A stretch of DNA of 46,486 bases from a virus, in the IMG/VR virus record IMGVR_UViG_3300010265_000001; one strand, 5' to 3'. This document shows, piece after piece, positions 4,546-46,486 of the stretch. The notes beneath the pieces were generated by a model. The model did not search any database and had not been told where the DNA came from. It was given only the letters and a program-made list of their open reading frames with translations. Each line of letters opens with the position of its first letter. Position 1 is the first letter of the stretch. A program made the translations under genes and the position numbers.

Positions 4546-5051
4546 TGCCATGGATGGATATTAAAAGCACAAACATCGCCGACACGGTTTACTCCGACGG
4601 CGTTCTCGTGGCCAAGGACGTGGCCTTCACCCTTCCGGCCATCACACCGTTAGCCGGCGAAGCTCAGGCCATGGGATCCATGGAGGTCATCGCCGTCGGC
4701 CTTATTGAGGCCATGGAGGCAACCATCACAAAGATCGGCACAGATCTCGGCCTCAGCCGCATGATGCGCCTCGAAAAGCAGAACCTCGAGTTCAGGTGGG
4801 TGCACAATGTGAGCTTATCGGATGGCACCAGCAAGCCAGAGGGCTGCAAGGCGTTTATCCGTGGCGTGCCGAAATCCCTGCCGGCCATCGGCGTGGAAAT
4901 CGGATCTAACTCCGAGAACGAGATCGCGTTCGCGGTTACTCGTTACCAGCTATTTGTCGGAGGCACGGAGATCCTGCTCGTGGATAGATTGAGCCAGATC
5001 TTGAGGATCAACGGCGTCGACTATTACAGCAAGATCAACAGTCTATTATAA
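4545..5051 (+). CDS. Tail tube protein (P2 FII-like)
   Basis: 168 aa, TAATG-coupled to the sheath gene. Size and position are typical of a myovirus tube protein. Confidence 0.75.
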   Translation: MPWMDIKSTNIADTVYSDGVLVAKDVAFTLPAITPLAGEAQAMGSMEVIAVGLIEAMEATITKIGTDLGLSRMMRLEKQNLEFRWVHNVSLSDGTSKPEGCKAFIRGVPKSLPAIGVEIGSNSENEIAFAVTRYQLFVGGTEILLVDRLSQILRINGVDYYSKINSLL

Positions 5052-5525: not shown

Positions 5526-5629
5526 TCGACTACGCAGAGGCCGCGGAGGAGCTGGCAGAAGAACAGAAAAGGCGTGAGAAAAACGCCAAACATAAGTACC
5601 AGCCAAGGGCCAAATATAGAGGGAGGTGA
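5109..5629 (+). CDS. Tail assembly chaperone, -1 frameshift product (gpGT/P2 E+E'-like)
   Basis: From the A6G slip site at 5499-5505, the -1 frame stays open for 41 codons (RRVIDFLIDYAEAAEELAEEQKRREKNAK...). It stops at TGA 5627-5629, right at the tape-measure start. Confidence 0.65.
5499..5505 (+). promoter_or_regulatory. Putative -1 programmed ribosomal frameshift slippery site (AAAAAAG)
   Basis: tcg aaa aaa ggc in the zero frame, with a conserved position near the chaperone 3' end. Confidence 0.6.
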
Positions 5630-7920
5630 GCGTATTGGCCAAAAGTAAAACCTTGCAAGCTATTGTCGAGATCGCCGGTACGATCAGCCCCACCCTCGGC
5701 AAGTCTATCGAGGAGGCAACCGGCAAGCTCGAGGGCATCAACGTCAAAGCTCTGGCCGTGGGTGCAGCCGTCGGCGGCATAGCGATCGCCACAGGCAAAG
5801 CAGTCATGGAGGCCGGGCAATACCTCACGGATCTCGGCGGCCGGTTCGATGAAGCAACGGACGCGATCAGGATCGGAACCGGCGCAACCGGTGAAGCGCT
5901 CGACGCTCTCCTGTCCGACTTCGACGAGGTATACAAAAGCGTACCGACGACCATGGAGGACGCCAGCAAGGCCATCGCCGACTACAACACCCGCCTCGGG
6001 CTGACCGGCGAGCCCCTTCAGGAGATCTCAAAGCAGGCCCTCCAAGTCAGCAATATGCTGGGGGATGACCTGAACGGAGTCATCGAGGGATCGTCTCAAG
6101 CCTTCCAAGCATGGAATATCGACGCCGAAAAGATGGGCGAGGCCATGGACTTCGTATTTAAGGCCAGCCAAGCAACAGGCATCGGCTTCACCGAGCTCAT
6201 GCAAAAGGCTCAGCAATTCGCTCCGCAGCTTCAAGAAATGGGCTACAGCTTCGAGGATGCCACTGCTCTGATCGGTCAGATGGAAAAGGCCGGCGTGCAG
6301 ACCGATGAAGTTCTGGCAGCCATGAAAAAGAGCGTCGGGGCTCTTGCAAAAGAGGGCTACTCGGCGAGCGAAGGGCTTCAGCTCTATTATGAAAAAATCA
6401 AGAACGCAGGCAGCGCAGCCGAAGCGACGACCATCGCCAGCGAGATCTTCGGAGCTCGTGCTGGCTCAACGATGGCCGCAGCCATCCGGGACGGAACTCT
6501 TGCGGTCGAGGACTTTACTGCCTCACTCAAAGAGAACAGCGAGACCATATTGGGTGCAGCTGAGGACACGATGGACTTCCCTGAGCGGCTGCAAATGTTC
6601 AAACAGCAGGCAGAAGTCGCGCTCAAACCACTGGCCAACACCATGTTCGACTCCCTCAACAGCCTAATGCCCGTTGTCGCTGAGGCGATGGAGTCACTGG
6701 CCCCGATTATTGAGGAGACCGTGACCGTGCTGCAACCACTTATCACCGAGTTATTCAGCGGCCTGCTGCCTGTACTCAAGAGGCTCCTGCCGATGATCGT
6801 GGATATAGGAGGCAGACTATTGACTACCCTCATTCCCCCGGTCATGAAGTTATTTAATTCAATTATGCCGATCGTGCTGCAACTGCTCGAGGCGCTCATG
6901 CCGATATTGGATGTCATCATCCAGCTGCTCGGGCCGATCCTCGACCTGATCGTCGCGGTGCTCCAGCCTGTACTCGACCTGATAAGTCAGGCCATCGCTC
7001 CGCTGATCCTCGTGCTCTCGCAGCTAATCAACGCGGTACTTCAACCGCTGGGGCCGATCATCGAGTGGATCTCCGGGCTATTCACTGAAGTGCTCGGCAA
7101 CGCCATCGCCGGCATAAAACCGATAATTGACGCGCTGATCACTGTATTCAGCGGCGTGATCGACTTCGTGAAAAACATATTCGCAGGCAACTGGCAGGGC
7201 GCGTGGGATGCAGTCGTCAAGATATTCTCCGGAATATGGGACGGAATGGTGGCCATATTCAAGGCACCAATAAACTGGATCATCGACGGCATCAATATGT
7301 TCCTGAAGGGCCTGAACAAACTCAAGATCCCCGACTGGGTACCGCTCGTCGGCGGTAAAGGCATTAACATCCCGCTGATCCCGAGACTGGCAGCCGGTGG
7401 CTTCACCGATGGCATAAGTATCGCCGGTGAGGCCGGCATGGAGGCAGTAATCTCCTTCCTCCCTCAGTTCAGGAAGGAAAATATTGAATACTGGAAAAAA
7501 GCCGGTGAGCTGCTCGGAGTAATTGACAAAAACCAGCCGATCGTCGTGTCAATAGATGGGCTTCCGGCGTTCGCTTCCGGCGGCTTCACCGATGGAATAA
7601 GCATCGCCGGAGAAGCTGGTACAGAGGCCATTATATCTTTTGACCCGGCACACCGCAAAGAGAATATAGGCTACTGGGCCCAAGCCGGTCAACTTCTCGG
7701 GCTGGACGACTTCTCTCTCGCCGGGCTGACGGAGTCCACAGTCATCATTTACGACTTCTCTGGCTTCCACTACAACCCGCAGATCGAGGCCGATGGAAAC
7801 ACAGACACCAGCGATCTCATGGAAAAACTGAAGCAGCACGAGCTCGAGTTCTTCGACTGGCTCGAGCGCTGGCTGGCCAGAAGGGAGGTCGGAGACTTTG
7901 CGCGTCACGCGATTTATTAA
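5626..7920 (+). CDS. Tail tape measure protein
   Basis: 764 aa, Ala/Gly/Leu-rich and helical, with a hydrophobic central block. Located after the chaperone pair. The start could be GTG 5626 or TTG 5635. Confidence 0.85.
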   Translation: MSVLAKSKTLQAIVEIAGTISPTLGKSIEEATGKLEGINVKALAVGAAVGGIAIATGKAVMEAGQYLTDLGGRFDEATDAIRIGTGATGEALDALLSDFDEVYKSVPTTMEDASKAIADYNTRLGLTGEPLQEISKQALQVSNMLGDDLNGVIEGSSQAFQAWNIDAEKMGEAMDFVFKASQATGIGFTELMQKAQQFAPQLQEMGYSFEDATALIGQMEKAGVQTDEVLAAMKKSVGALAKEGYSASEGLQLYYEKIKNAGSAAEATTIASEIFGARAGSTMAAAIRDGTLAVEDFTASLKENSETILGAAEDTMDFPERLQMFKQQAEVALKPLANTMFDSLNSLMPVVAEAMESLAPIIEETVTVLQPLITELFSGLLPVLKRLLPMIVDIGGRLLTTLIPPVMKLFNSIMPIVLQLLEALMPILDVIIQLLGPILDLIVAVLQPVLDLISQAIAPLILVLSQLINAVLQPLGPIIEWISGLFTEVLGNAIAGIKPIIDALITVFSGVIDFVKNIFAGNWQGAWDAVVKIFSGIWDGMVAIFKAPINWIIDGINMFLKGLNKLKIPDWVPLVGGKGINIPLIPRLAAGGFTDGISIAGEAGMEAVISFLPQFRKENIEYWKKAGELLGVIDKNQPIVVSIDGLPAFASGGFTDGISIAGEAGTEAIISFDPAHRKENIGYWAQAGQLLGLDDFSLAGLTESTVIIYDFSGFHYNPQIEADGNTDTSDLMEKLKQHELEFFDWLERWLARREVGDFARHAIY

Positions 7921-13791: not shown

Positions 13792-14880
13792 ATGGCTATA
13801 ACAAACAGAGACTTTGATGTCGCCGTTCGCCTGCTGAGCGGCGGCACAAATGAAGCGATTTACAACGACGTCGGCCTCCCGTCCATCATGGTGAGGAAGG
13901 ATAAAAAGCAGATCTCCGAAGTCATAGCCGGAGGCAGCGCAAGCACTCACCCGGCCTTTATAGTGGACGGCGTCGAGGTTCCTTCCTTCTACATCAGCAA
14001 GTTCCAAAATGTAGTATATAAAGGCAGAGCCTACTCTCTGCCTATGCAGGATCCCGGAAACTCCATAAACTTCGACAACGCAAAGGCAGCCTGCGAGGCG
14101 AATGGCCCGGGCTTCCACCTTCCGACTATTGCCGAATATGCCTTTATTGCACAGGAGGCAAGGAACCGCGGAACGATGCCGAGGGGCAACAACAACTACG
14201 GCAAAGATCACTCGGCCCCATGGGAAACGGGTATACCGACATATATCGACGGCGAAGGAAGAGTTTGCAGAGTGGCCACAGGTTCCGGCCCAGTCTCATG
14301 GTCAGATAACTGGCAAGAAGATGGCATATGGGACTTGAATGGCAACGTCCACGAGTGGCAAGGTGGATACAGGACGGTCGACGGGGAAATCCAGATCATA
14401 CCCGACAACAATGCAGCCATGCAGATAAACCAAAACCCTGATAGCACGTTCTGGAAGGCAATTATGCCGGACGGTTCACTGGTGGCTCCGGGTACACCCG
14501 GGACACTAAAATGGGACTACTTAAACCCGGTGCCAGTAGGAGGAACGGGAGAGTATGCCTTCAGGCTGAACACGGTAATCGCAAACCCGGCAGACAATGA
14601 GACGGCATATGGATCAGTCTTGTTTCACGCCTTAACAGCAGCCGACGGCGTAAATGTTCCGGAGCTCCTAAAAGTCCTCTGTCTATTCCCTAACGAGCCG
14701 GGCGGCGACTATGGAAACGACAGGCTATATATGAGGAACATCGGAGAGCGGCTCGCGGCTCGTGGCGGCCGCTGGTCCAGCGCGTCGAGCGCTGGTGTGT
14801 TCTGCACGGGCGGCAACGCCCCTCGGTCGCACGTCGGCGCGTACATCGGCTTCCGCTCCGCTTACATTCCGGGGATCTGA
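13792..14880 (+). CDS. DGR target protein 1: FGE/C-type-lectin-fold putative receptor-binding protein with C-terminal VR1
   Basis: 362 aa. The C-terminus ...ERLAARGGRWSSASSAGVFCTGGNAPRSHVGAYIGFRSAYIPGI has the FGE-sulfatase-type CLec signature. Its last roughly 117 nt match the TR. Confidence 0.9.
   Translation: MAITNRDFDVAVRLLSGGTNEAIYNDVGLPSIMVRKDKKQISEVIAGGSASTHPAFIVDGVEVPSFYISKFQNVVYKGRAYSLPMQDPGNSINFDNAKAACEANGPGFHLPTIAEYAFIAQEARNRGTMPRGNNNYGKDHSAPWETGIPTYIDGEGRVCRVATGSGPVSWSDNWQEDGIWDLNGNVHEWQGGYRTVDGEIQIIPDNNAAMQINQNPDSTFWKAIMPDGSLVAPGTPGTLKWDYLNPVPVGGTGEYAFRLNTVIANPADNETAYGSVLFHALTAADGVNVPELLKVLCLFPNEPGGDYGNDRLYMRNIGERLAARGGRWSSASSAGVFCTGGNAPRSHVGAYIGFRSAYIPGI
14746..14862 (+). repeat. 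DGR variable region VR1
   Basis: Hand alignment of 117 nt to TR 15322-15438 gives 16 differences. 14 are at TR adenines and 2 at TR thymines. Confidence 0.9.
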
Positions 14881-14911
14881 GATCTGCCAATCTGAAAATC
14901 TGACAAGGGCG
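14863..14911 (+). promoter_or_regulatory. Conserved 3' flank of VR1 with four phased ATCTG repeats (candidate DGR target-recognition element)
   Basis: tacattccggggATCTGagATCTGccaATCTGaaaATCTGacaaggg aligns with the flank of VR2 (24370-24418) and has the same 7/8/8-nt spacing. The TR has no such flank. Confidence 0.6.
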
Positions 14912-14931
14912 TCCCGCCAAAGGACGCCCTT
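14905..14931 (+). other. GC-rich hairpin downstream of VR1 (DGR-associated stem-loop and/or weak terminator)
   Basis: aagggcgtcc / ggacgccctt forms a perfect 10-bp stem with a 7-nt loop. No strong T-tract follows. Confidence 0.6.
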
Positions 14932-14950: not shown

Positions 14951-15292
14951 ATGGCCGATTTTATACTACAACAGCGAATAAACCGCATGATCCTGAAATC
15001 GACGCCCCGCATCATGAACATGAAGAAGCCCGAGAAGTTCGTCCTCGGCGCTGCGATCCGGGAAAGCGAATACAAGATCCTGCGGCTTACTATACTCGGG
15101 AACAAGACAAGAGACAGCAAAAGACCGTACCAGATGGAGATCGACGCAGAGCTCGAAGTTCTACGGGCCTATATTGATATAGCAGTCGCACCAGAGGCAC
15201 GGCTTATTTCCACGGGTGTGCATGAGGAATGGTCGAAGGAAATCAACGAGATCGGCCGCCTCCTCGGCAAGTGGATAAAATCCACTAAATAG
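14951..15292 (+). CDS. avd: DGR accessory variability determinant (Avd, four-helix-bundle protein)
   Basis: 113 aa, basic and helical, located between the target gene and the TR as in the BPP-1 mtd-avd-TR-brt layout. Confidence 0.8.
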   Translation: MADFILQQRINRMILKSTPRIMNMKKPEKFVLGAAIRESEYKILRLTILGNKTRDSKRPYQMEIDAELEVLRAYIDIAVAPEARLISTGVHEEWSKEINEIGRLLGKWIKSTK

Positions 15293-15321
15293 CACCTGCG
15301 GGGGATGCGCCGAATAAAATC

Positions 15322-15438
15322 GAGCGGCTCGCGTATCGTGGCGGCAACTGGAACAACACGTCGAACGCTGGTGTGTTCTACATGAACGGCAACAACCCTC
15401 GGTCGAACGTCGGCGCGTACATCGGCTTCCGCTCCGCT
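15322..15438 (+). repeat. DGR template repeat (TR)
   Basis: A non-coding copy of the VRs. It is rich in AAC codons in the VR frame: 8 AAC and 23 adenines by hand count. Confidence 0.9.
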
Positions 15439-15648
15439 CTGGCCTGAATGTTAGAAGCCTGTCGCTCAAGGGCGAAGGACAACGCCAAGGCCAAAGGGGC
15501 GCATCTCCCTACCTCCTGAGTAAACAGGGGGCAAAAGATTAAATTGCCATGAAGGCAGGCGCGCCGGGAGACCGGACTCGGAAGCTACCAACCCAAAAGC
15601 AGCCTCCGGGTATTGCCACGCATGGCGTCAATATTGTGAGGGAGACAG
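15439..15648 (+). ncRNA. DGR RNA spacer region between the TR and the RT (part of the TR-containing template/primer RNA)
   Basis: A 210-nt non-coding gap with several short hairpins. Its position corresponds to the Sp region of characterised DGRs. Confidence 0.55.
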
Positions 15649-16764
15649 ATGGCAAAAATATCAAACATTTACAAGGACATTTACAGCTGGGACAACCTCT
15701 ACAACGCGTACAGAGAGGCAGCTCGCGGCAAATGGTTCAGGGATGACGTGGCGCGCTTTACGGCTCACCTCGATGAAAACCTGATCCAGCTCCAAAACGA
15801 GCTCATGTGGCACACCTACAAGGTCGGCCGGTACCGCGAGTTCTATGTCTACGAGCCTAAAAAGCGCCTGATCATGGCGCTGCAATTCAGGGATCGCGTC
15901 GTGCAGTGGGCTATATACCGGCAAATCAACCACCTATTTGATAAGCAATTCATTTATGACTCTTACGGCTGCCGGGAAGGCAAGGGAACCCACCGAGCAG
16001 CTGACCGCCTTCAATACTGGATGCGGGCAGTCGACAGAAAGCCGAGTGAATGGTATTACCTGAAGCTCGACATCAGCAAATATTTTTACCGTGTAGATCA
16101 CCGGACACTCATGGACATCCTGCGCCGGAAAATTGACGACGAGGATCTCCTCTGGCTGCTCGGTACGATCATTAACTGCGAGCATACGGCCTTCGGCCTG
16201 CCGCTGGGCCTGAGCCCTGACCAATGCGACAAGGCTGACCGACTCATGGAGGTCGGGATGCCGATCGGCAACCTGACGAGCCAACTGTTCGCAAATATCT
16301 ACCTCAACGAGCTCGATCAATTCGCAAAGCACGAGCTCCGGCTCCGTTATTACATCAGGTACATGGATGACGTGATCATCCTGCACCAAGACAAGAAATA
16401 TCTGCACGAGGTAAAGGACAGGATCGAGGTATTCCTCAACGAGGAGCTCAGGCTCCACCTGAACAACAAGACGGCCATCCGGAAAGTGAAGTCCGGGATC
16501 GAGTTCGTTGGCTTCAGGATATTTCCGACGCATCGGAAGTACAAGAAGAAATCCCTGCGCAAACTCATGAGCCGGCTGAAATATGTGGCCAAAGAGTACG
16601 CAGCGGGACGCATGAGTCTCGAGAAGGTCAACGCCACAGTCCAGTCCTATTATGGAGCTATGCAGCACTTCAACAGCTACGGCCTGCGCCGTAAATTGTC
16701 ACAAACGGTGGTGTTCAAGAGAACGACACCAGAAATGGAGGGATCCGACGATGCACAGAACTGA
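15649..16764 (+). CDS. DGR reverse transcriptase
   Basis: 371 aa. It has the YMDD box (YIRYMDDVIIL) and the DGR-type motif PIGNLTSQLFANIYLNELD (SQ in place of the group II intron QG). Confidence 0.92.
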   Translation: MAKISNIYKDIYSWDNLYNAYREAARGKWFRDDVARFTAHLDENLIQLQNELMWHTYKVGRYREFYVYEPKKRLIMALQFRDRVVQWAIYRQINHLFDKQFIYDSYGCREGKGTHRAADRLQYWMRAVDRKPSEWYYLKLDISKYFYRVDHRTLMDILRRKIDDEDLLWLLGTIINCEHTAFGLPLGLSPDQCDKADRLMEVGMPIGNLTSQLFANIYLNELDQFAKHELRLRYYIRYMDDVIILHQDKKYLHEVKDRIEVFLNEELRLHLNNKTAIRKVKSGIEFVGFRIFPTHRKYKKKSLRKLMSRLKYVAKEYAAGRMSLEKVNATVQSYYGAMQHFNSYGLRRKLSQTVVFKRTTPEMEGSDDAQN

Positions 16765-23271: not shown

Positions 23272-23417
23272 TACCAGACAAGATCCCGGAAACCGTAACC
23301 GATAGACTGGCCCGCCCGCTGATCGACATCGTGGCCAAAGCGTTCGAGGATCCGAAAGTCGTCAAGGAGTACGGACGCTGGAAAAAGGAGCGCCAAGAAA
23401 AACTTGCGGCCCACTGA
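23193..23417 (+). CDS. Small Cys-rich protein (CxxC...CxC)
   Basis: MHQYICEHCNAHLDPGERCDCQK... RBS aaaggagg lies 6 nt upstream. Confidence 0.55.
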   Translation: MHQYICEHCNAHLDPGERCDCQKVEIIPDKIPETVTDRLARPLIDIVAKAFEDPKVVKEYGRWKKERQEKLAAH

Positions 23418-23445
23418 GCCGCAAATACGAAAGGAGCAAAAAATT

Positions 23446-24435
23446 ATGAAAAACGAACTTATTTTTGACAATGCTGGAATACCGAGCATCATGGTCACAA
23501 TCCCGAAATTCAAGCTCTCGGAGGTAATCGACGGAGCGCCCGACATCACTCACCCTGCCTTCATCGTGAACGGCAAAGAAGTCGACGAAATCAGTATTTC
23601 CAAGTATCAGAACGTTGTCATCAATGGCAAAGCGTACAGCCTACCGCTTCAGGAGCCTGCCGTGAACATCGACTTCGACAACGCGATCTCAGTCTGCGAA
23701 GCCAAGGGCCCGGGCTGGCACCTTATGACGAACGCCGAATGGGCTGCGATCGCTCTCTGGAGCAAGAAGAACGGCACCCTTCCTCACGGAAATACCAGCT
23801 GCGGCAAATACCACGCAGACAACTCAGAACGCGGGATCCTGTTCGATAACGTCAGGACACTCACCGGCAGCGGGCCAAAGACATGGACACACGACCACAC
23901 CGAGCTCGGCATCCACGACCTGAACGGCAACATTCTCGAATGGGTTGGCGGCGTTCGCTGGGTAGACGGCGAGCTCCAGATCATCCCGGACAACAATGCC
24001 GCAGCAGGGGCAGATCAGACAGCTGAGAGCAAGGACTGGACGCCAGTCATGACACCGGACGGATCCGTCAAGTACAAAGTAACAGAGGATGCCATCACAT
24101 TGACCACCGAGCAGCCCGAGCAATACTGGGACGGCTTCAGGTTTAACGACCTTCAGAGCGAGATCGAAGCGCCTGACATCGTGAAGGCACTGGCTCTTTA
24201 TCCGGCAGACGACGAACAGGTCGACGGATATTTCTGGCTCGATACCGAAGGGGAGCGGCTCGCGTCTCGTGGCGGCGCCTGGTACGGCACGTCGAACGCT
24301 GGTGTGTTCTGCATGGGCGGCGACTACCCTCGGTCGTACGTCCACACGTACATCGGCTTCCGCTCCGCTTATATTCGTCCTTCTGCAATCTGTCAATCTG
24401 ACAATCTGGACAAGGATGGTGGCCGCGATGAATAG
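23446..24435 (+). CDS. DGR target protein 2: paralogue of 13792-14880 with C-terminal VR2, located in the early region
   Basis: 329 aa, alignable to target 1 over its full length (IPSIMV, THPAFIV, KAYSLP, FDNA..CEA.GPG.HL, NGN..EW.GG.R.VDGE.QIIPDNNAA). The C-terminus ERLASRGGAWYGTSNAGVFCMGGDYPRSYVHTYIGFRSAYI matches the TR. ATG 23446 follows aaaggag. Confidence 0.88.
   Translation: MKNELIFDNAGIPSIMVTIPKFKLSEVIDGAPDITHPAFIVNGKEVDEISISKYQNVVINGKAYSLPLQEPAVNIDFDNAISVCEAKGPGWHLMTNAEWAAIALWSKKNGTLPHGNTSCGKYHADNSERGILFDNVRTLTGSGPKTWTHDHTELGIHDLNGNILEWVGGVRWVDGELQIIPDNNAAAGADQTAESKDWTPVMTPDGSVKYKVTEDAITLTTEQPEQYWDGFRFNDLQSEIEAPDIVKALALYPADDEQVDGYFWLDTEGERLASRGGAWYGTSNAGVFCMGGDYPRSYVHTYIGFRSAYIRPSAICQSDNLDKDGGRDE
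24253..24369 (+). repeat. DGR variable region VR2 (remote, about 8.8 kb downstream of the TR)
   Basis: Hand alignment of 117 nt to the TR gives 15 differences. 12 are at TR adenines and 3 at TR guanines (24343-24346). Confidence 0.85.
24370..24418 (+). promoter_or_regulatory. Conserved 3' flank of VR2 with phased (A/T)TCTG repeats, here inside coding sequence
   Basis: tatattcgtccTTCTGcaATCTGtcaATCTGacaATCTGgacaagga. The spacing (7/8/8) and terminal acaagg match the VR1 flank. Confidence 0.6.
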
Positions 24436-25165
24436 TCTGAAATCATTATTTGAAAACCACAAGGCCCTCGTCCTGTTCGACTGCGAAACCAGCGGTCTCG
24501 ATCCGGACAAGCATCAGAGCATTGAGCTGGCGGCCATACGCATCGAGGAGACACCTCGGGGAGCTCTCCGGATCGCCGACCAGATGGACACCTTCATCAA
24601 ACTGCCGGACGGTGAGAAACTCCCACCTGACATCGTGGAGCTGACGGGGATCACTGACGCGAAGCTGCTGAGCGAGGGTGTAAACACTCACAAGGCAGCC
24701 AAGACCTTCGCCAGAATGTTCTCGGGCACCGGGGCCGTGCTCATGGTGGCCCACAACGCACAGTTCGACATCCAATTCGTGAGCGCGCTGCTGCGCAAAG
24801 AACAGCAGACCATCAGCGTGCCAGTCAATAAGCTCGACACCCTGACCGTATACAAAGACCGCAGGCCATACCCTCACAAGCTGGCCAATGCGATCATCGC
24901 CTACAACCTGACCGACAAGGTGCAGAACAGCCACCGGGCCATCGACGACGTGCTTGCCATGTTCGAGGTTATGAAGGCCATGGCCGAGGAACGCGATGAT
25001 CTGGCAACATACATAAACCTGTTCGGCTATAACCCCAAGCATGGAGTGAGCGGTCGCAGGATCCCGGGCATCCGGTACGAGGCACAGAACTTCAACAACA
25101 TTATGACAAGGCCCGAGCAGACACTTCCGGCAAGGGTGGCAGCCAAGGGGGCGTTCAGGCGATGA
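24428..25165 (+). CDS. DnaQ-like 3'-5' exonuclease (DEDDh)
   Basis: Exo motifs LFDCETSGLD, VAHNAQFDIQF and HRAIDDVLAM. The start overlaps the stop of target 2 by 8 nt. Confidence 0.85.
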   Translation: MNSLKSLFENHKALVLFDCETSGLDPDKHQSIELAAIRIEETPRGALRIADQMDTFIKLPDGEKLPPDIVELTGITDAKLLSEGVNTHKAAKTFARMFSGTGAVLMVAHNAQFDIQFVSALLRKEQQTISVPVNKLDTLTVYKDRRPYPHKLANAIIAYNLTDKVQNSHRAIDDVLAMFEVMKAMAEERDDLATYINLFGYNPKHGVSGRRIPGIRYEAQNFNNIMTRPEQTLPARVAAKGAFRR

Positions 25166-26541: not shown

Positions 26542-27255
26542 ATGTATCAGGCAACGAGAAGGAGCTGCCAGCTCGCACCTGACAGCTCCCGGAGATCATC
26601 AGAACCGCTCAAAGCAATACCAATGACCTCCTCCATTATAGCACGCAGACGCAAAAAGCTGAAGATGCGCAGGCGTGCCGCAGCCATCATCATGATCCTA
26701 CTGGTCGTGTGGGTGGCGTGGAGCATTAAGACCATCAGCGACCGGACGCAGACCGCCGAACAACCGCCGGTCGACCTGCCGACAACCACAGAACAGCCAA
26801 CGGCAGCGCCGGCAATATCCATGGAGCCAGCAGTCATTCCGATCGCAATACCAGCACCAGAGAAGCCTCCGAGGTACGAGCTGACAGCTGAGGAGCGCGA
26901 CATCATCGAGAGAGTGGTCACTGCTGAAGCCGCTGGCGAACCGTTCGCCGGTCAGGTCGCAGTCGCCCAGTGCATCCTCAACGCTTGCGAGAAGGATGGC
27001 ATCAGGCCGCTCGAAGTTCTCACAAAGTACAAGTACGCCACGAGCAGGCCCGATCCTGAAGGTACGGTACCGGAGGCCGTGGCCGCCGTATTCGATGACG
27101 GCTGGTATGTAACGACAGAACCGATCCTCTACTTCTACGCGCCGGATCGGACAAAAAGCGACTGGCACGAGTCTCAGGACTTCGTGATTGAGATAAACGG
27201 GCACCGCTTTTTTGCTGAAAAACCAAATCAAGAAAGGAGCAACCCCAATGAATGA
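26542..27255 (+). CDS. Membrane-anchored SleB-like cell-wall hydrolase (Hydrolase_2)
   Basis: N-terminal TM AAAIIMILLVVWVAW. The C-terminus ERDIIERVVTAEAAGEPFAGQVAVAQCILNA...ILYFY is typical of the SleB/CwlJ domain. The true start may be Met at 26623. Confidence 0.7.
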   Translation: MYQATRRSCQLAPDSSRRSSEPLKAIPMTSSIIARRRKKLKMRRRAAAIIMILLVVWVAWSIKTISDRTQTAEQPPVDLPTTTEQPTAAPAISMEPAVIPIAIPAPEKPPRYELTAEERDIIERVVTAEAAGEPFAGQVAVAQCILNACEKDGIRPLEVLTKYKYATSRPDPEGTVPEAVAAVFDDGWYVTTEPILYFYAPDRTKSDWHESQDFVIEINGHRFFAEKPNQERSNPNE

Positions 27256-28256: not shown

Positions 28257-29126
28257 ATGGCTGACACTACCAAAAAGACTGCCGGCACAACTACGGCGGC
28301 TGCTAAGGAACAGAGCAAGACCCCAGCAGCACCACAGACCAGCGAGATCCCTCATGAGGCCATGAGCCTCCAACAGAAGATCGTCGAGCTGCGGAAAGCC
28401 TGCCCGAAGATCATCAAGCAGAAATACAGCGACGGCGTCGATTATAAATTCGCCAAGATCTACGACGTATGGGAGGCCATCACCCCCGTGATGAACGAGG
28501 TCGGCGTCAACTTCGACGTCGTGGCCGAGGTTCCCAGCAAGAAGGACGAGCTCGGCAACGCTGTCTATTACACGACCATCATGGCCAAGACCAAGTACGG
28601 GGAGCGCCTCATGTTCCTCTATGAGGCCGACCTGACTGTCAAATGGACGAACGTCGACGATCCGGACGACACCGAAACCGTCACCCTCCACGCCATAGGC
28701 TGGAACGATGACCCGGCCAAGGCCAAGGGAAGCGCGTGGACTTATTGCCTGAAGTATTACCTGTTCGAGAAGTTCAGCATTGACCAAGGCGAGGATGATC
28801 CGGACGCCAACGGCTTCAACAGCACCGGAACGCCACAGAATACGCCGCAGGGCGCGAAAACCGGAAACAGACAACCAAACACCCGACCACCGCAGCAAAA
28901 CGCGCCACAGGGCAACACAGGCGCTCAAAAACCGCTAAGCGATAAGCAGCTCGAGAGGATGTACCTCAAGGGCGAGGCTGCCGGCATAAGCAGGGAGCTC
29001 GTCAACAAGCGCATCGCTGAGAAGTATCACAAGCAGAACCCCGCGCTCATGAGTCGGGCCGAATATGACGAGGTATGCGCTGCCCTCGATAAAGCAGCCG
29101 CAGAAGGAGGAACAGCTCATGAATGA
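28257..29126 (+). CDS. erf: ERF-family single-strand annealing recombinase
   Basis: 289 aa. LQQKIVELRKACPKIIKQKYSDGVDYKFAKIYDVWEAITPVMNEVGV is typical of ERF. The C-terminal half is Gln/Pro-rich. Confidence 0.75.
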   Translation: MADTTKKTAGTTTAAAKEQSKTPAAPQTSEIPHEAMSLQQKIVELRKACPKIIKQKYSDGVDYKFAKIYDVWEAITPVMNEVGVNFDVVAEVPSKKDELGNAVYYTTIMAKTKYGERLMFLYEADLTVKWTNVDDPDDTETVTLHAIGWNDDPAKAKGSAWTYCLKYYLFEKFSIDQGEDDPDANGFNSTGTPQNTPQGAKTGNRQPNTRPPQQNAPQGNTGAQKPLSDKQLERMYLKGEAAGISRELVNKRIAEKYHKQNPALMSRAEYDEVCAALDKAAAEGGTAHE

Positions 29127-29514: not shown

Positions 29515-29517
29515 CAC

Positions 29518-29561
29518 GACCGCCGGACGACCACTGGACGACCGCCGGGCAACCGGAGAAC
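29518..29561. repeat. Iteron cluster A: four 11-bp-phased units (gaccgccggac, gaccactggac, gaccgccgggc, aaccggagaac)
   Basis: Read directly in the intergenic gap between ssb and the replication gene. Confidence 0.7.
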
Positions 29562-29589
29562 GACCAAGCACAGAAAGGAGGATCAGGTC

Positions 29590-30477
29590 ATGGCATGGCT
29601 CCAAGTTCATCAAACGCTCAAAGATCACCGCAAACTTTTAGAGGCTGCCGACATACTCGAAGTTACACCGCCCCACATGATGGGGATCCTGATCTCCTTC
29701 TGGCTATGGGCGCTGGATAATGCTCCGAGCGGAACCCTCGGAGGCATATCCTCCCGAATAATCGCCAGAGCTGCACAGTGGGAAGGCGATCCGGATCGAC
29801 TGGTGGAAGCCCTGACGGCCTCGAAATGGCTGGACAAGGGTGAGAACGGCCTCGAGATCCATGACTGGTATGAGTACGCAGGCAAGCTAATCGACCAGAG
29901 GATCGCTGAGAGAGAAAGATCCAAGAGACGCCGCTCCGCTCAAAGTTCGACCGCCGGACGACCGCCGGACGACCGCCGGACGACCGCCGGACAGTCTGCC
30001 GACGACCAACAAACAGCCGCAGGCAGAGTAGACCAGAGTAGACCAGAGTATACAAGAGAAGAAGATATAGACCCCCTACCCCCTAAAGGGGAGAAGCAGC
30101 AGCCCGTCCCCTTCGAGAAAATCATGCAGCTATACAACGAGATATGCGTGAGCTTCCCGAAAGTGCTCAACATAGAAGGCCAAAGACGCAAGGCCGTTGC
30201 TGCACGCTGGAAAACATACAAGGATCTCGAAGCCTTCGAGACCTTATTCCGAAAAACCGAGGCCAGCAGCTTCCTGAAAGGTCACAACGACCGGAACTGG
30301 ATGGCCGACTTCGACTGGATAACCAAGCCGACCAACATGACCAAGGTGCTGGAAGGCAAATACGACGACAAAGGAGGAGATCAGAGTGGAGTCAATCGCC
30401 AACATACTGGCAGGGACAATGCAGCCCCGCAGCTCTCGGGCTTCCATATCGCAGGAGACGACGAAACCGACGAATGA
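29590..30477 (+). CDS. Replication initiator/replisome-organiser-like protein
   Basis: 295 aa. It carries internal iterons and sits upstream of the DnaC-like loader. The C-terminus FEKIMQLYNEIC..FPKV......RKAVAARW resembles the conserved phage C-terminal replication domain. Confidence 0.6.
   Translation: MAWLQVHQTLKDHRKLLEAADILEVTPPHMMGILISFWLWALDNAPSGTLGGISSRIIARAAQWEGDPDRLVEALTASKWLDKGENGLEIHDWYEYAGKLIDQRIAERERSKRRRSAQSSTAGRPPDDRRTTAGQSADDQQTAAGRVDQSRPEYTREEDIDPLPPKGEKQQPVPFEKIMQLYNEICVSFPKVLNIEGQRRKAVAARWKTYKDLEAFETLFRKTEASSFLKGHNDRNWMADFDWITKPTNMTKVLEGKYDDKGGDQSGVNRQHTGRDNAAPQLSGFHIAGDDETDE
29949..29992. repeat. Iteron cluster B: four perfect tandem copies of GACCGCCGGAC (11 bp) inside the replication gene
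   Basis: Read directly. The 11-bp period forces the repeat through all three frames (STAGRPPDDRRTTAGQ). Confidence 0.85.
30024..30053. repeat. Three tandem 10-bp repeats (cagagtagac x2, cagagtatac)
   Basis: Read directly, 31 nt downstream of iteron cluster B. Confidence 0.8.
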
Positions 30478-39760: not shown

Positions 39761-39846
39761 GAGGAAACCGTATAAAATGGCATTGAAATATATGGCGAAC
39801 GATGTTACGGTATATCGTGAAGAAATCCGGAGAGCGTACGGAGAGC

Positions 39847-39868
39847 GACCGCCGGTCGACCGCCAAAC
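39847..39868. repeat. Two further iteron-like 11-bp units (gaccgccggtc, gaccgccaaac)
   Basis: Same core and phasing as the clusters at 29518 and 29949. Lies in non-coding DNA before a terminator. Confidence 0.55.
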
Positions 39869-39884
39869 GTCCAAAGGATAACCG

Positions 39885-39920
39885 AAAAACGTCAGGGAAT
39901 ACAACTCCCCGGCGTTTTTT
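39885..39920 (+). terminator. Rho-independent terminator between the early/late-regulator region and the packaging genes
   Basis: Stem acgtcaggg/ccccggcgt with one mismatch, followed by tttttt. Confidence 0.65.
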
Positions 39921-45322: not shown

Positions 45323-46486
45323 CGGAGCACAGGCGGCCCCGGCTACCGCGCCAAAGTTCTGGAATATCGCGTCCGTGTCCGACGACGAGGGCGAGATCAC
45401 CCTTTACGGCGAAATAATGAGCAGCCAGCCGACAGACTGGTGGACTGGTGAACCACTGCCCGGACTGTATATCACCCCCGAGGGCTTCCTTGAAGATCTG
45501 GAAGTCGTCAAGGGGAAAAGCAAGATCACCATCAAGCTCAACAGTGTGGGCGGCGATCTTTACACCGGCATCGCAATTCACAACGCCATCAAGGGCCTCA
45601 CAGGAACCAAGAAGGTCATCGTCGAGGGCATCGCGGCCAGCGCTGCCAGCGTTATTATGTGCAGCGGCGACGAGGTGGCGGTATATCCCGGCAGCCTTGT
45701 GATGATCCACGGAGTCAGCGGCCTGTTTTATGATTATTACAACATAACCGAGCTCAAGCAGATCATCAAGGGCTTCGACGCAGCTGAAAGGGCCATCGCT
45801 GAGATTTACTCAGCAAAGACCGGCACCGACGTGGAAACCCTTCGTTCCATGATGACAAAGGAGACATGGATGACGGGCAAAGAAGCGATCGAGAAGGGCT
45901 TCGCCGACACATTACTGGAAGGCTCAGGCCCTCAAATGGTCATGAGTGCAGACAAGACCGTACTGCTTGTCAATGGCATAAAGCACAACATCAAAGGGCT
46001 GCACAATATTCCCGGAAATATCCCGGTAAAAAGCATTTCATCCGCAGCGCCTAAAGGCTCCGCGGCTGGAATAGAAAAACCAAAATCCAATGAAGGAGGC
46101 AAGAAAACCATGACACTCGAAGAATTAAGACAGCAGCATCCTGAGCTCGTCGCTCAAATTGAAGCGGCCGCAAGGGAAGCAGCTACAGCCGAGGCCATCG
46201 CAGCCGAAAGAGCTCGCATTAAGGAAATCGAGAGCATCGAGGCAGCGGTCGGCGATCCCCAGCTCGTGGCTGAGGCCAAATATGGCGAGAAGCCTTGCAC
46301 AGCAGCAGAGCTCTCCCTGAAGGCTTTACAGAAGCAGGCCCAGCTCGGCAAACAGCACCTTGACAACTCTGCAAAGGACTACAAAGCATCCGGAGCAGAA
46401 GGTGTCGGTGCAGCTCCCAACTCAGGGAACCAAGACGACGAACTCGACGTTGCTCAACAGGTGAGCGCGATCGTGGACGTCTACAA
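45315..46486 (+). CDS. ClpP-like prohead protease fused to a scaffold domain (gpC-like). Runs off the window end and finishes at 149-151.
   Basis: Translated by hand: MINGAQAAPATAPKFWNIASV...LNSVGGDLYTGIAIHNAI...GIAASAASVIMCSG...VMIHG, a ClpP-type Ser/His context. A coiled-coil C-terminus follows. It is missing from the ORF track because there is no stop inside the window. Confidence 0.8.
   Translation, partial: MINGAQAAPATAPKFWNIASVSDDEGEITLYGEIMSSQPTDWWTGEPLPGLYITPEGFLEDLEVVKGKSKITIKLNSVGGDLYTGIAIHNAIKGLTGTKKVIVEGIAASAASVIMCSGDEVAVYPGSLVMIHGVSGLFYDYYNITELKQIIKGFDAAERAIAEIYSAKTGTDVETLRSMMTKETWMTGKEAIEKGFADTLLEGSGPQMVMSADKTVLLVNGIKHNIKGLHNIPGNIPVKSISSAAPKGSAAGIEKPKSNEGGKKTMTLEELRQQHPELVAQIEAAAREAATAEAIAAERARIKEIESIEAAVGDPQLVAEAKYGEKPCTAAELSLKALQKQAQLGKQHLDNSAKDYKASGAEGVGAAPNSGNQDDELDVAQQVSAIVDVY
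46364..46486. repeat. Terminal direct repeat, identical to 1-123
   Basis: See the first feature. Confidence 0.95.

Follow-up and report, generated by a model that had tools for sequence, protein, structure and literature searches.

How the cDNA of a diversity-generating retroelement (DGR) finds and replaces its VR is still called incompletely understood (PMC12875486, 2026), and the finding of the VR together with the sparing of the TR is the chief problem of mutagenic retrohoming that awaits a solution. Target signals have so far been defined in one phage, BPP-1, where they comprise (GC)14, a 21-bp IMH segment and a hairpin; the 21-bp segment, lying 3' of (GC)14, determines homing directionality (PMC3240598). 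The DNA analysed here (the window; 46,486 nucleotides from a virus, IMG/VR record IMGVR_UViG_3300010265_000001) raises the question of what marks a VR as the place to be rewritten, as both of its VRs run directly into a common set of short phased repeats which does not follow the TR. A preliminary description had taken these repeats for a cis-acting, IMH-type element, and the comparative data assembled here support that interpretation, with the homing role remaining an inference. We assign a probability of roughly 0.72 to the reading in which the phased repeats belong to the DGR target site and act there in cis, as a VR-specific signal which distinguishes VR from TR and fixes the start of homing. 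This role is inferred from position and comparison, without experimental evidence. The array is probably part of the signal directing where new mutations are written.

Two phased arrays in one DGR cassette

The cassette meets the criteria of a DGR, having an RT beside the TR, an adenine-biased TR/VR pair, an Avd gene, and targets of the CLec fold with a C-terminal VR (Table 1). Its RT is 60% identical to that of Faecalibacterium phage Lagaffe and is kin to other annotated phage DGR RTs. Target gene 1 comes after baseplate and tail genes, and target gene 2 sits in the early/replication module; the FGE-sulfatase domain is present in both, over the Pfam cut-off in target 2 and under it in target 1. 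VR1 varies at TR-A positions between phages with 98–100% identical RT, and the three VR2 mismatches which do not fall on adenines of the TR lie at positions where the TRs of relatives have A.

Table 1. Features of the DGR region and their positions in the window.
Feature	Position	Strand	Remarks
DGR target gene 1	13792..14880	+	ORF list; C-type-lectin / FGE-sulfatase fold; weak match to Pfam PF03781
VR1	14743..14862	+	16 mismatches vs TR, 14 at TR adenines
VR1 phased array	14869..14902	+	CTG cores 14877-79, 14884-86, 14892-94, 14900-02 (ATCTG x4)
GC-rich hairpin directly 3' of VR1 array	14905..14931	+	DNA fold and hairpin scan
Avd accessory protein (bAvd-like)	14951..15292	+	Pfam PF22296, E = 1.2e-19
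Template repeat (TR)	15319..15438	+	VR homology stops at 15438
TR-side spacer	15439..15648	+	starts with CTG and nested stem-loops; kept in relatives
DGR reverse transcriptase	15649..16764	+	Pfam RVT_1, E = 3.9e-24
DGR target gene 2 (remote)	23404..24435	+	target 1 paralogue, 44% aa identity; stop TAG 24433-24435
VR2	24250..24369	+	15 mismatches vs TR, 12 at adenines
VR2 phased array	24375..24408	+	CTG cores 24383-85, 24390-92, 24398-24400, 24406-08 (TTCTG + ATCTG x3)
DnaQ/RNase T-like exonuclease gene	24428..25165	+	Pfam RNase_T; PHROG 192; context only

Homology between the TR and the VRs stops at ...TTCCGCTCCGCT (14862 in VR1, 24369 in VR2, 15438 in the TR), after which the two targets continue with a sequence that they have in common and that is confined to the VR side, exactly as had been described. 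VR1 closes with 15 GC-rich nt, GGCTTCCGCTCCGCT (14848-14862), which recur without change in the TR and in VR2 and stand where an IMH has its (GC)14. Since this GC-rich end is the same in TR and VR, discrimination between them must lie downstream. A similar point was made in a survey of DGRs, for the many with identical IMH and IMH*, in which "recognition would have to extend downstream" (PMC5758913).

The 3' flank of VR1 reads TACATTCCGGGG ATCTG AG ATCTG CCA ATCTG AAA ATCTG ACAAGGG, with ATCTG starting at 14875, 14882, 14890 and 14898, and that of VR2 reads TATATTCGTCC TTCTG CA ATCTG TCA ATCTG ACA ATCTG GACAAGGA, with units starting at 24381, 24388, 24396 and 24404. The flank of the TR, CTGGCCTGAATGTTAGAAGCC..., is unrelated to both and has no phased repeat, nor were phased repeats found elsewhere in the TR-side spacer (15439..15648). 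The four phased repeats 3' of both VRs, their absence from the TR and their spacing of 7, 8 and 8 nt were therefore all reproduced, in sequence and in coordinates. This four-unit part (14875-14902 and 24381-24408) is preceded by a degenerate extra unit placed 8 nt 5' of the first CTG (CCG at 14869-14871 in VR1, TCG at 24375-24377 in VR2), with which the unit spacing becomes 8, 7, 8, 8 in both arrays. A search of the whole window for further ATCTG arrays, proposed together with the preliminary description, returned the VR1 and VR2 clusters only: the pattern ATCTGN3ATCTGN3ATCTG occurs at these two sites against an expectation of 0.00 (100 shuffles), and neither strand of the window has a further cluster of three or more ATCTG or CAGAT within 40 nt. 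In agreement with the ORF list and with the earlier account, the VR1 array lies chiefly beyond the stop codon of target gene 1 (TGA 14878-14880, which falls within the first ATCTG), and the VR2 array is translated throughout (..SAICQSDNLD..). The start of the exonuclease gene (ATG 24416 or 24428) is found directly beyond the VR2 array, and we do not claim it as part of the element. The anatomy of the element at both targets can be regarded as established.

Conservation of the array among related DGRs

To judge the element beyond the window, we compared 68 non-redundant VR flanks and 68 TR flanks of DGRs with related RTs (41–100% identity). At least three phased CTGs were present in 48/68 VR flanks and 0/68 TR flanks, the frequency among random windows being 0.5%, and 44 of the 48 arrays had at least four units. 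The CTG spacing was 7 nt in 95 cases and 8 nt in 61. Conservation of the phasing in aligned VR 3' flanks, which had been named beforehand as a way of checking the element, was thus confirmed, and its VR specificity is demonstrated by the same comparison. It should be kept in mind that the surveyed loci are phylogenetically related and that these counts are not independent events. The survey also corrects the preliminary description in one respect: the repeats are phased as described, but ATCTG is not the conserved unit. The core is CTG, or more broadly YTG, and relatives carry it in different flavours (ATCTG, AACTG, TTG), with spacers diverged and CTG retained. In the degenerate unit, 85% of the arrays have G at position -6 and 91% have Y at position -7 (relative to the first CTG), and this N-Y-G unit stems from three different C-terminal peptide contexts.

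The general layout is a GC-rich end as in the TR, a linker of 7–17 nt with the codons for the final residues of the target protein, the N-Y-G unit, four A-W-CTG units and, after 0–4 nt, usually a GC hairpin; the array within this layout is about 34 nt long, with an overall unit spacing of 8, 7, 7/8, 8. Such a grammar is simple and can be mutated in its core, unit number and spacing. The association with VR ends is close to exclusive. In 2.3 Mb of related loci we counted 118 arrays of four CTGs; 115 of them stand right after a VR end (106 after a detected VR end, and 9, on contigs that are truncated, after a VR-like end of the CLec type), and the other three are unrelated. With 115/118 arrays in such a position, the array is a near-specific tag for DGR targets, which could serve for finding remote or orphan targets and for orienting VR against TR automatically.

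The breadth of the phenomenon across phyla is likewise observed directly. In over 100 DGRs from phages and prophages of Bacillota, phased repeats follow the VRs and not the TRs, and they occur also in P2-like phages that infect Vibrio, Pseudoalteromonas and Aeromonas; four YTG units with a GRNA-loop hairpin are present in VHML, VP58.5, ACA1, phiARM81mr and BalMu-1. The phased A-W-CTG array would then supply the downstream signal for a large DGR clade, comprising Bacillota phages and P2-like phages of Gammaproteobacteria, if its inferred homing role is correct. No array is present in Hankyphage, archaeal virus vir525 or Pseudomonas phage SC_8, and ANMV-1 is also without one. The RT of Hankyphage, when used in a scan, matched only RTs at least 83% identical to it, so it counts as one independent array-less lineage. 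For crAss-like cr55_1, self-BLAST of 11 kb revealed no TR/VR pair. A full-text search of the DGR literature, which did not cover subscription-only papers such as Doulatov 2004, found no prior description of phased repeats after VRs.

The conservation acts on DNA and not on protein, as had been proposed from the different coding status of the two arrays of the window. The stop codon precedes all or most of the array in 45/48 of the non-redundant cases. In the translated ones, Ser is TCT in 8/8 cases and Leu is CTG in 4/4, the four-fold degenerate sites within TCTG are invariant, and the codon positions in the spacers vary. Because most arrays lack translation and the synonymous sites in TCTG are frozen, we reject a protein-level explanation.

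Relation to the BPP-1 target signals and to the hairpin

The best reading of the array is that it is the counterpart of the 21-bp IMH element of BPP-1 and that array and hairpin are recognised jointly on the sense strand, although the reading of single-stranded DNA is inferred. Like the BPP-1 IMH, the array is VR-specific and lies 3' of a GC-rich stretch common to TR and VR and 5' of a hairpin. A GC-rich start identical in TR and VR, which is one criterion for an IMH, is met by the last 15 nt in the TR, VR1 and VR2. A further one, a second segment of about 21 bp homologous to the IMH* of the TR, is not met, as the flanks are unrelated after ...CCGCT; IMH and IMH* of BPP-1 are about 76% identical, whereas between the array and the TR flank no homology is left. 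That the array sets the direction of homing, as the BPP-1 element does, is inferred, with only indirect support from its VR-exclusive distribution. In comparison to the BPP-1 segment the array is also about twice as long (approximately 34 nt), has 4–5 regularly phased units and is mostly non-coding. On the other hand, the BPP-1 21-bp segment itself reads T-CTG-N7-C-CTG-N4-C-TTG. Three of the five positions at which IMH and IMH* differ belong to the middle unit and its 3' neighbour (CCTGA -> TCACC), where the CTG is gone from the TR. The array suggests a role for the five discriminating bases of the BPP-1 IMH. Moreover, a two-unit version, YTG-N4-YTG, stands just 5' of the hairpin in 45/48 VRs and 0/48 TRs of the BPP-1 clade. 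These units are within coding sequence (..DHLxL..), and a protein constraint there cannot be excluded. A description of an IMH as a phased repeat was not found in the DGR literature examined.

The preliminary description had set the array apart from the GC-rich IMH and hairpin of BPP-1. This contrast was overstated, as VR1 has the classical GC hairpin, unmentioned there, directly after its array and the BPP-1 IMH has CTG units. The stem of the VR1 hairpin is formed by GGGCGTCC (14907-14914) and GGACGCCC (14922-14929), with 8 bp extendable to 10 bp, and it begins 43–45 nt past the end of TR homology, the array filling the interval. The loop consists of 7 nt (CGCCAAA), unlike the GRNA tetraloop. 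In BPP-1, a hairpin/cruciform downstream of the VR is experimentally required, with a 4-nt sense-strand GRNA loop (PMC3240598), and the distance between VR and hairpin, 4–34 bp, was termed "quite flexible" (Guo et al. 2011, PMC3240598). By these measures the VR1 hairpin has the required GC stem of 7–10 bp and lacks both the GRNA loop and the 4–34 bp distance; it would escape the location rule of myDGR, because its stem starts 43–45 nt past the VR.

A hairpin was detected after 44/48 of the non-redundant related arrays, with GC-rich stems of 7–11 bp and a gap of 0–4 nt from the array in 40/44; the loop fits GRNA in 28/44 (GATA 17, GGCA 3, GACA 3, GGTA 2, GAAA 2, GGAA 1). Guo et al. made no mention of repeats between VR and hairpin, though VHML, shown in their Figure 5 (PMC3240598), has four YTG units there. 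In contrast to their description, the distance between hairpin and array is here fixed and that between array and VR variable (7–17 nt), so that the array explains the supposedly flexible VR-to-hairpin distance. DNA folding gave no hairpin after the VR2 array. VR2 is nevertheless diversified, since it differs at TR-A positions between the window and its homologue in L365, and a target without hairpin is in this case an active one.

Possible readers of the array and competing explanations

The way in which such a signal might work can be outlined only as a proposal. The sense strand would be single-stranded as the lagging-strand template or during transcription, and its A-rich, unstructured array with the hairpin could then offer an oligomeric protein a place to dock. 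The likeliest reader would be the RT-Avd particle of the DGR itself: the 5' end of the cDNA stays covalently tied to the DGR RNA, and pairing of the cDNA with the GC-rich VR end would place RT-Avd beside the array.

That Avd specifically reads the array is a tentative suggestion, inferred without binding data. The same caution, for the same lack of binding data, applies to the more detailed possibility that five YTG units and the hairpin are where the Avd pentamer docks when the sense strand of the target is single-stranded, with each T-G held in one inter-protomer crevice. The RT-Avd-RNA-cDNA particle would in that case be handed from the TR RNA to the VR DNA, which would bring the 5' end of the cDNA onto the GC-rich VR end. 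Were it true, the array would be the code, so far missing, by which DGR retrohoming recognises its target, and the BPP-1 IMH a shortened version of it. In the published structure, all five protomers of the Avd pentamer contact the Sp 3-33 stem-loop, and the flipped-out U3, G4 and U7 occupy inter-protomer crevices (bioRxiv 10.1101/2023.10.23.563531). The array is like this "grapple" at the 5' end of the spacer RNA in several respects: a tetraloop stem-loop lies just 3' of the repeat (the TR there, the VR here), unpaired U/T and G bases precede it, the TR flank in the clade of the window mostly starts with CTG and a stem, and five phased units would fit five protomers. However, the grapple is a donor-side RNA and was shown experimentally, whereas the array is recipient DNA with extended repeats, to which binding of Avd is pure inference. 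DNA docking would also need a hand-off or a second Avd, because the crevices in the published RNP are already filled by spacer RNA. A bAvd is present in the array-bearing ACA1, phiARM81mr, BalMu-1 and window, and none was found in the array-less Hankyphage, vir525 and ANMV-1; the link between Avd and array is weakened by the array-less SC_8, which has a bAvd-like gene.

Arrangements of this kind have known parallels. The sites of TRAP (GAG/UAG x11) and HutP (UAG-N4 x3) have invariant cores, variable spacers of fixed length and a period of 5–7 nt, with one subunit bound per repeat. The array resembles them in its invariant short cores, its variable spacers of fixed length and its unstructured strand, but TRAP and HutP sites are RNA attenuators without a link to retroelements, and no homology is implied. 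Circoviruses, geminiviruses and rolling-circle replicons carry iterons beside the origin hairpin, and HUH Rep nucleases bind these iterons in duplex form. There, too, about four short direct repeats directly flank a hairpin with a conserved loop and position a protein acting at or near it; the DGR cassette, unlike these systems, has no nuclease. Should the homing role be borne out, the array would be a compact candidate cassette for retargeting DGRs in Gram-positive hosts.

A cis-acting target element could also be read by a replication or recombination factor (primase, Erf-like annealing protein, SSB), or act via DNA mechanics, the effect being to make or prolong ssDNA, or to provide a nick or primer end, beside the VR. 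We regard this as unlikely, though it has several points on its side. CTG is the start triplet of E. coli DnaG, genes for an Erf-like SSAP and a DnaQ-like exonuclease are present in the phage, and Pseudomonas phage SC_8 carries bAvd without an array. The sense strand is, furthermore, complementary to the cDNA, and editing favours the orientation in which this strand serves as the lagging-strand template (PMC12875486). Annealing proteins and SSB, however, are not known as sequence-specific. The preference of DnaG differs between Bacillota (CTA/TTA) and Gammaproteobacteria (CTG), while the CTG/TTG core of the array is alike in both and so does not track it. In E. coli, changed dosage or recruitment of DnaG left BPP-1 DGR editing unaltered (PMC12875486), and we retain a CTG start site of the host primase only as a low-probability rival. 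The tight coupling of the array to the DGR-specific GRNA hairpin and its near-exclusive association with VR ends favour a reader dedicated to the DGR.

An element of gene expression, such as part of a terminator, a site of RNA processing or stability, or a translational control or coupling signal for the next gene (avd; exonuclease), seems improbable to us. Both arrays of the window do lie 10–50 nt 5' of the next start codon, the array abuts the next RBS in several IMG/VR loci, and T-rich tails follow the hairpins of some relatives. Yet the downstream genes vary (avd, exonuclease, others) while the upstream partner is always a VR end, and the TR, which is also located upstream of an operon gene, has no array (0/68). 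An intrinsic terminator can be rejected: no T-run follows the VR1 hairpin, whose tail is TTCCATATTT, VR2 has no hairpin, and the terminator scan made no call at either. The Rfam 15 scan of the whole window gave 0 matches at gathering score, and the GRNA/GNNA loops (GATA, GGTA, GACA) fit the sense-strand DNA loop of BPP-1 better than an RNA GNRA loop (PMC3240598). Even less credible is a sequence without function of its own, kept as a residue of gene duplication, by lineage inheritance or by selection on the C-terminal peptide. Its appeal rests on the paralogy of the two targets (44% aa identity), on the flank identity of about 70% in the window, which is not above that of other parts of both genes, and on the recognisable peptide S-x-I/L-C-x-S-D/E-x-L-D encoded by arrays of the VR2 type. 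The comparative data already contradict it: the CTG phase is kept despite changed spacers, flavour and peptide, down to RT identities of about 41% and in two phyla, in arrays that are mostly untranslated or invariant at the four-fold sites of TCTG, and never after a TR. The recurrence of the repeats after VRs of DGRs with related RTs, in Bacillota and in P2-like phages of Gammaproteobacteria, disposes of the duplication residue that had been named as a possible refutation.

Guide pairing of the array with the DGR RNA was also considered and rejected, as RNAduplex against the TR plus 200 nt in 48 loci gave a mean z of -0.13 relative to shuffled arrays, with 1/48 below -2. As to the first triplet of the TR spacer, ACA1 and VHML combine a CTTG spacer with TTG units, and most Bacillota loci combine CTG with CTG; this covariation, suggestive in a few lineages, is broken by loci with a CTA or CAC spacer start and CTG arrays, and it was not used as evidence. 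The period of 7–8 nt is only an indirect argument for single-strand reading. The array strand itself is slightly less self-structured than its shuffles.

Phased repeats behind the VRs of the window and of related DGRs

The window is the complete genome of a temperate, myovirus-like phage whose DGR has the canonical layout (see the table). Re-examination of both VR flanks found the sequences and coordinates recorded in the preliminary description to be exact. Homology of the VRs to the TR ends at ...CCGCTCCGCT, past which the TR runs on into unrelated sequence; the array is absent from it as had been claimed. Behind VR1 and VR2 alike four units follow at the reported spacing of 7, 8 and 8 nt, and the coding status was also read correctly: the target 1 stop codon lies inside the first repeat, and target 2 translates the entire array. 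A search of the window for other arrays gave no further occurrence of ATCTGN3ATCTGN3ATCTG besides these two (expectation 0.00) and no further ATCTG or CAGAT cluster. The VR1 array is followed by a hairpin with an atypical 7-nt loop; in the VR2 3' flank no significant structure, and hence no hairpin, was found. Since further VR-linked arrays without a hairpin, each directly followed by the next gene's ribosome-binding site and start codon, were seen in IMG/VR loci (L095, L137, L168, L173, L403, L409, L413, L423), hairpin-less targets are a recurrent minority class and not peculiar to VR2 of the window.

Coordinates of features in the window
Feature	Position	Remark
Direct terminal repeat	1-123 = 46364-46486	exact, 123 nt
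Tape-measure gene	5626-7920	
Internal direct repeat	7394-7517 and 7577-7700	124 nt, 70% identity
Target 1	13792-14880	carries VR1
VR1	14743-14862	in target 1
VR1 array, unit starts	14875, 14882, 14890, 14898	ATCTG x4
Target 1 stop codon	14878-14880	TGA
VR1 hairpin stem	14907-14914 / 14922-14929	
bAvd	14951-15292	
TR	15319-15438	
TR 3' spacer	15439-15520 (part next to the TR)	
RT	15649-16764	
Target 2 with the exonuclease gene behind it	23404-25165	
Target 2	23404-24435	remote paralogue of target 1; carries VR2
VR2	24250-24369	in target 2
VR2 array, unit starts	24381, 24388, 24396, 24404	TTCTG + ATCTG x3
11-nt repeat clusters	26738-26800, 29516-29567, 29936-30031, 39823-39896	ACGACCGCCGG and variants
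Erf-like ssDNA-annealing protein	28257-29126	
Replication initiator	29590-30477	

The comparison set comprised 80 IMG/VR and 80 bacterial-genome loci with RTs 41-100% identical to that of the window and hosts in the Bacillota (e.g., Clostridia, Lachnospiraceae, Tepidibacillus, Faecalibacterium). TR/VR pairs were found by self-BLAST, an adenine-specific mismatch bias being required, and 50-nt windows were scored; VR flanks counted as non-redundant if they differed at more than 8 of 50 nt. Phased NNCTG repeats stand behind nearly every VR and behind no TR: at least three phased CTGs were present in 48 and at least four in 44 of the 68 VR flanks, neither in any of 68 TR flanks, and in 0.5% and 0.1%, respectively, of 20,000 random windows from the same loci. 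The distance between CTGs was 7 in 95 cases and 8 in 61, while 14 cases of 14-16 represent arrays in which one middle unit is degenerate. The phasing is thus conserved in the alignment of related VR flanks that the preliminary description had proposed, and these flanks, from loci with related RTs, contradict the possibility it had left open, that the similarity is a residue of gene duplication.

In the reverse test, both strands of all 161 loci (2.3 Mb) were searched for four CTGs at 7-8 nt spacing. A detected VR end precedes 106 of the 118 arrays found; 9, on contigs without enough length to include a TR, lie behind a VR-like end of CLec type (..TTCCGCNCCGCT), and only 3, one of them a simple tandem repeat, are unrelated to a VR. 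An exact-pattern scan of IMG/VR (ATCTGN3ATCTGN3ATCTG) gave at least 119 stretches. Among the matches listed, a strict regular expression places at least 21 behind a CLec-type VR-like end and inspection by eye about 5 more, the others being satellites or instances of a coding motif that recurs (D-Y-L-N-I-C-A-S-A). The latter, GAC TAT CTG AAC ATC TGT GCA TCT GC (L082, L089, L106, L110, L112-L114 and others), resembles a motif conserved in a phage replication ATPase or helicase and forms a class of false positives in searches for arrays.

Anatomy of the composite element and its constraint

The layout is stereotyped: a GC-rich segment shared with the TR is followed by a 7-17 nt linker encoding the last target residues and then by the units, four in 42 of 48 arrays, five in 2 and three in 4. 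They follow the consensus A-(A/T)-CTG, are separated by A-rich spacers and in most cases succeed one another at 7, then 7 or 8, then 8 nt. A degenerate fifth unit, N-Y-G, lies 8 nt upstream of the first CTG; across 42 arrays, position -6 is G in 85% and position -7 is Y in 91%. The unit takes the forms ATG, CCG and TTG in three C-terminal peptide contexts (..FYE*, ..IPGI*, ..FVNL*). The GC-rich stem of 7-11 bp starts 0-4 nt after the last CTG in 40 of 44 cases. Given this gap and the variable linker, the array is locked to the hairpin, and it is the array-to-VR distance that varies. The 4-nt loops of related arrays, GATA (17), GGCA, GACA, GGTA, GAAA and GGAA, match the GRNA sense-strand loop of the known DGR hairpin/cruciform (Guo et al., PMC3240598).

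As had been proposed for the two flanks of the window, conservation is at the level of DNA rather than protein. The stop codon precedes the first CTG in 14 of 48 arrays, lies inside the array in 31 and beyond it in only 3. When four translated arrays (VR2 of the window, L365, L366 and the remote VR of L033) were aligned with VR1, the invariant columns past the VR were in essence the four TCTG blocks. In translated arrays serine is always TCT (8/8) and leucine always CTG (4/4), and codon positions within the spacers vary (TGT/TGC, GAC/GAA/GAT, GCA/GGA). The unit flavour drifts among lineages with the phase retained, from ATCTG in close relatives to AACTG, CACTG and AGCTG in more distant ones and TTG in Megasphaera. 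In the Megasphaera MAG (L249, ~1709-1760) the phased TTGs (GATTTGACCCTTGATACTTGTGTTTTGCAGG) are followed by a GGTA-loop hairpin.

The array in other DGRs and in target recognition

The same array and hairpin design extends well beyond the Bacillota clade: to Bacillus phage BalMu-1 (TTG, CTG, CTG, CTG; spacing 7, 7, 8; loop GGTA), Vibrio phages VHML and VP58.5 (TTG, CTG, CTG, TTG; 8, 7, 8; GGTA), Pseudoalteromonas phage ACA1 (TTG x4; 8, 7, 7; GATA) and Aeromonas phage phiARM81mr (TTG x4; 7, 7, 7; GATA). In the BPP-1 clade the design is shortened to ..CTGTGAcCAC-CTG-N4-(C)TTG-AnTAr-hairpin, which 45 of 48 non-identical VRs and 0 of 48 TRs carry. The 21-bp IMH segment of BPP-1 (TCTGTGACCACCTGATTCTTG) carries CTG at its start, CTG in the middle and TTG at its end; three of its five mismatches with IMH* (TCTGTGCCCATCACCTTCTTG) convert CCTGA to TCACC, so the middle unit is missing from the TR. 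In this clade the units lie in coding sequence, so that a constraint from the protein cannot be told apart. Not every DGR has the array: it is absent in Hankyphage, archaeal virus vir525 and Pseudomonas phage SC_8. The archaeal virus ANMV-1 has a different repeat, AGCCG in a 7-nt phase: its VR (L284, ~4647-4675) is followed by GTAGCCG TAAGCCG AAAAGCAGG, three AGCNG units without a hairpin, which, judged from sequence, may be such a phased array behind a VR in an independent version.

While the DGR, IMH and hairpin are already known, we found no description of the phased array of 4-5 YTG units, the constant register it keeps with the hairpin, its almost exclusive tie to VR ends or the array-based reinterpretation of the BPP-1 IMH in the literature searched, although open-access coverage was incomplete and prior notice is possible. 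Guo et al. termed the VR-hairpin distance flexible (PMC3240598), and the myDGR server seeks hairpins only 4-34 bp from the VR, a rule which would miss the VR1 hairpin of the window.

The data directly show an array that is VR-specific, constrained as DNA, ancient and physically coupled to the hairpin, which is needed experimentally for efficient homing in BPP-1 (PMC3240598). By position it stands where BPP-1 has the element that makes homing directional; its own role in homing is inferred. As TR and VR of the window's clade have identical GC-rich ends, discrimination between them must lie downstream, and recognition extending downstream was anticipated by Wu et al. (PMC5758913). Among phages whose RTs are 98-100% identical, VR1 varies where the TR has adenine. 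VR2, which lacks a hairpin, is not the same in the window and in L365 but differs at adenine positions, thus an array-bearing target without a hairpin still undergoes diversification.

Paralogy or peptide selection is contradicted by the VR-only distribution in related DGRs, the stereotyped anatomy and the nucleic-acid constraint, and guide pairing of the array with the DGR RNA was rejected (mean z = -0.13). A terminator or expression element is not supported in the window, and exclusive linkage to VRs ahead of differing downstream genes is hard to reconcile with it. Recognition by primase, as start sites, or by other replication factors is not excluded; however, the core does not vary with host phylum, and perturbation of DnaG in E. 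coli had no effect (PMC12875486).

For target recognition, the array is inferred to be read on the sense strand in single-stranded form, the strand to which the cDNA is complementary, since the 7-8 nt period is not the DNA helical repeat, the A-rich array is slightly less self-structured than shuffles and the hairpin loop is strand-specific. Editing is favoured when the sense strand is the lagging-strand template (PMC12875486). The most attractive reader, hypothetically, is Avd, whose binding is inferred. In the spacer RNA, U3, G4 and U7 are flipped out into inter-protomer crevices of Avd, the same residues of different protomers touching them, and of 278 DGRs with Avd, 207 have similar stem-loops (bioRxiv 10.1101/2023.10.23.563531). 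The BPP-1 spacer begins C-A-U-G-G-C-U; TR flanks of the window's clade mostly begin with CTG and a stem. The cDNA, covalently held to the spacer, would pair with the GC-rich VR end and, through this joint, place RT-Avd exactly beside the array, where five phased T-G-containing units and a hairpin would suit the Avd pentamer. Among the few cassettes compared, bAvd is present in four with arrays and in the array-less SC_8, and was not detected beside three other array-less ones. The array makes the open question of DGR target recognition directly testable.

Further observations on the TR and the phage genome

The TR 3' spacer is structurally conserved in the window and in TR flanks of L001-L280 (CTG, an outer stem around a tetraloop hairpin, CAAAGGGG..CTCCC), matching the position of the 'Avd-binding stem-loop' of BPP-1. 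It starts with CTTG in ACA1 and VHML, lineages whose VR arrays have TTG units. Within the TR (15412-15418), the window and L001 have G at four positions where the close relatives L002-L006 and L061 have A (..GTCGGCGCGTAC.. vs AA.A..A), which explains the three non-adenine mismatches of VR2. On this comparison of sequences the window TR has lost four mutable adenines, through either drift or past overwriting of the TR.

The terminal repeat indicates a complete genome of ~46.36 kb, circularly closed or terminally redundant, with genes for tail sheath, baseplate proteins, a serine integrase, an Erf-like annealing protein and a replication initiator. Target 2 is located outside the tail module, in the early/replication region, an unusual home for a receptor-binding-type CLec target; a DnaQ/RNase T-like exonuclease gene is directly downstream and the Erf-like gene ~4 kb away. 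In L365 and L366 its homologues are likewise arranged with a translated array. The 11-nt repeats are probably origin iterons, because the clusters in which they are densest border on or extend into the replication-initiator gene. The internal direct repeat lies within the tape-measure gene.
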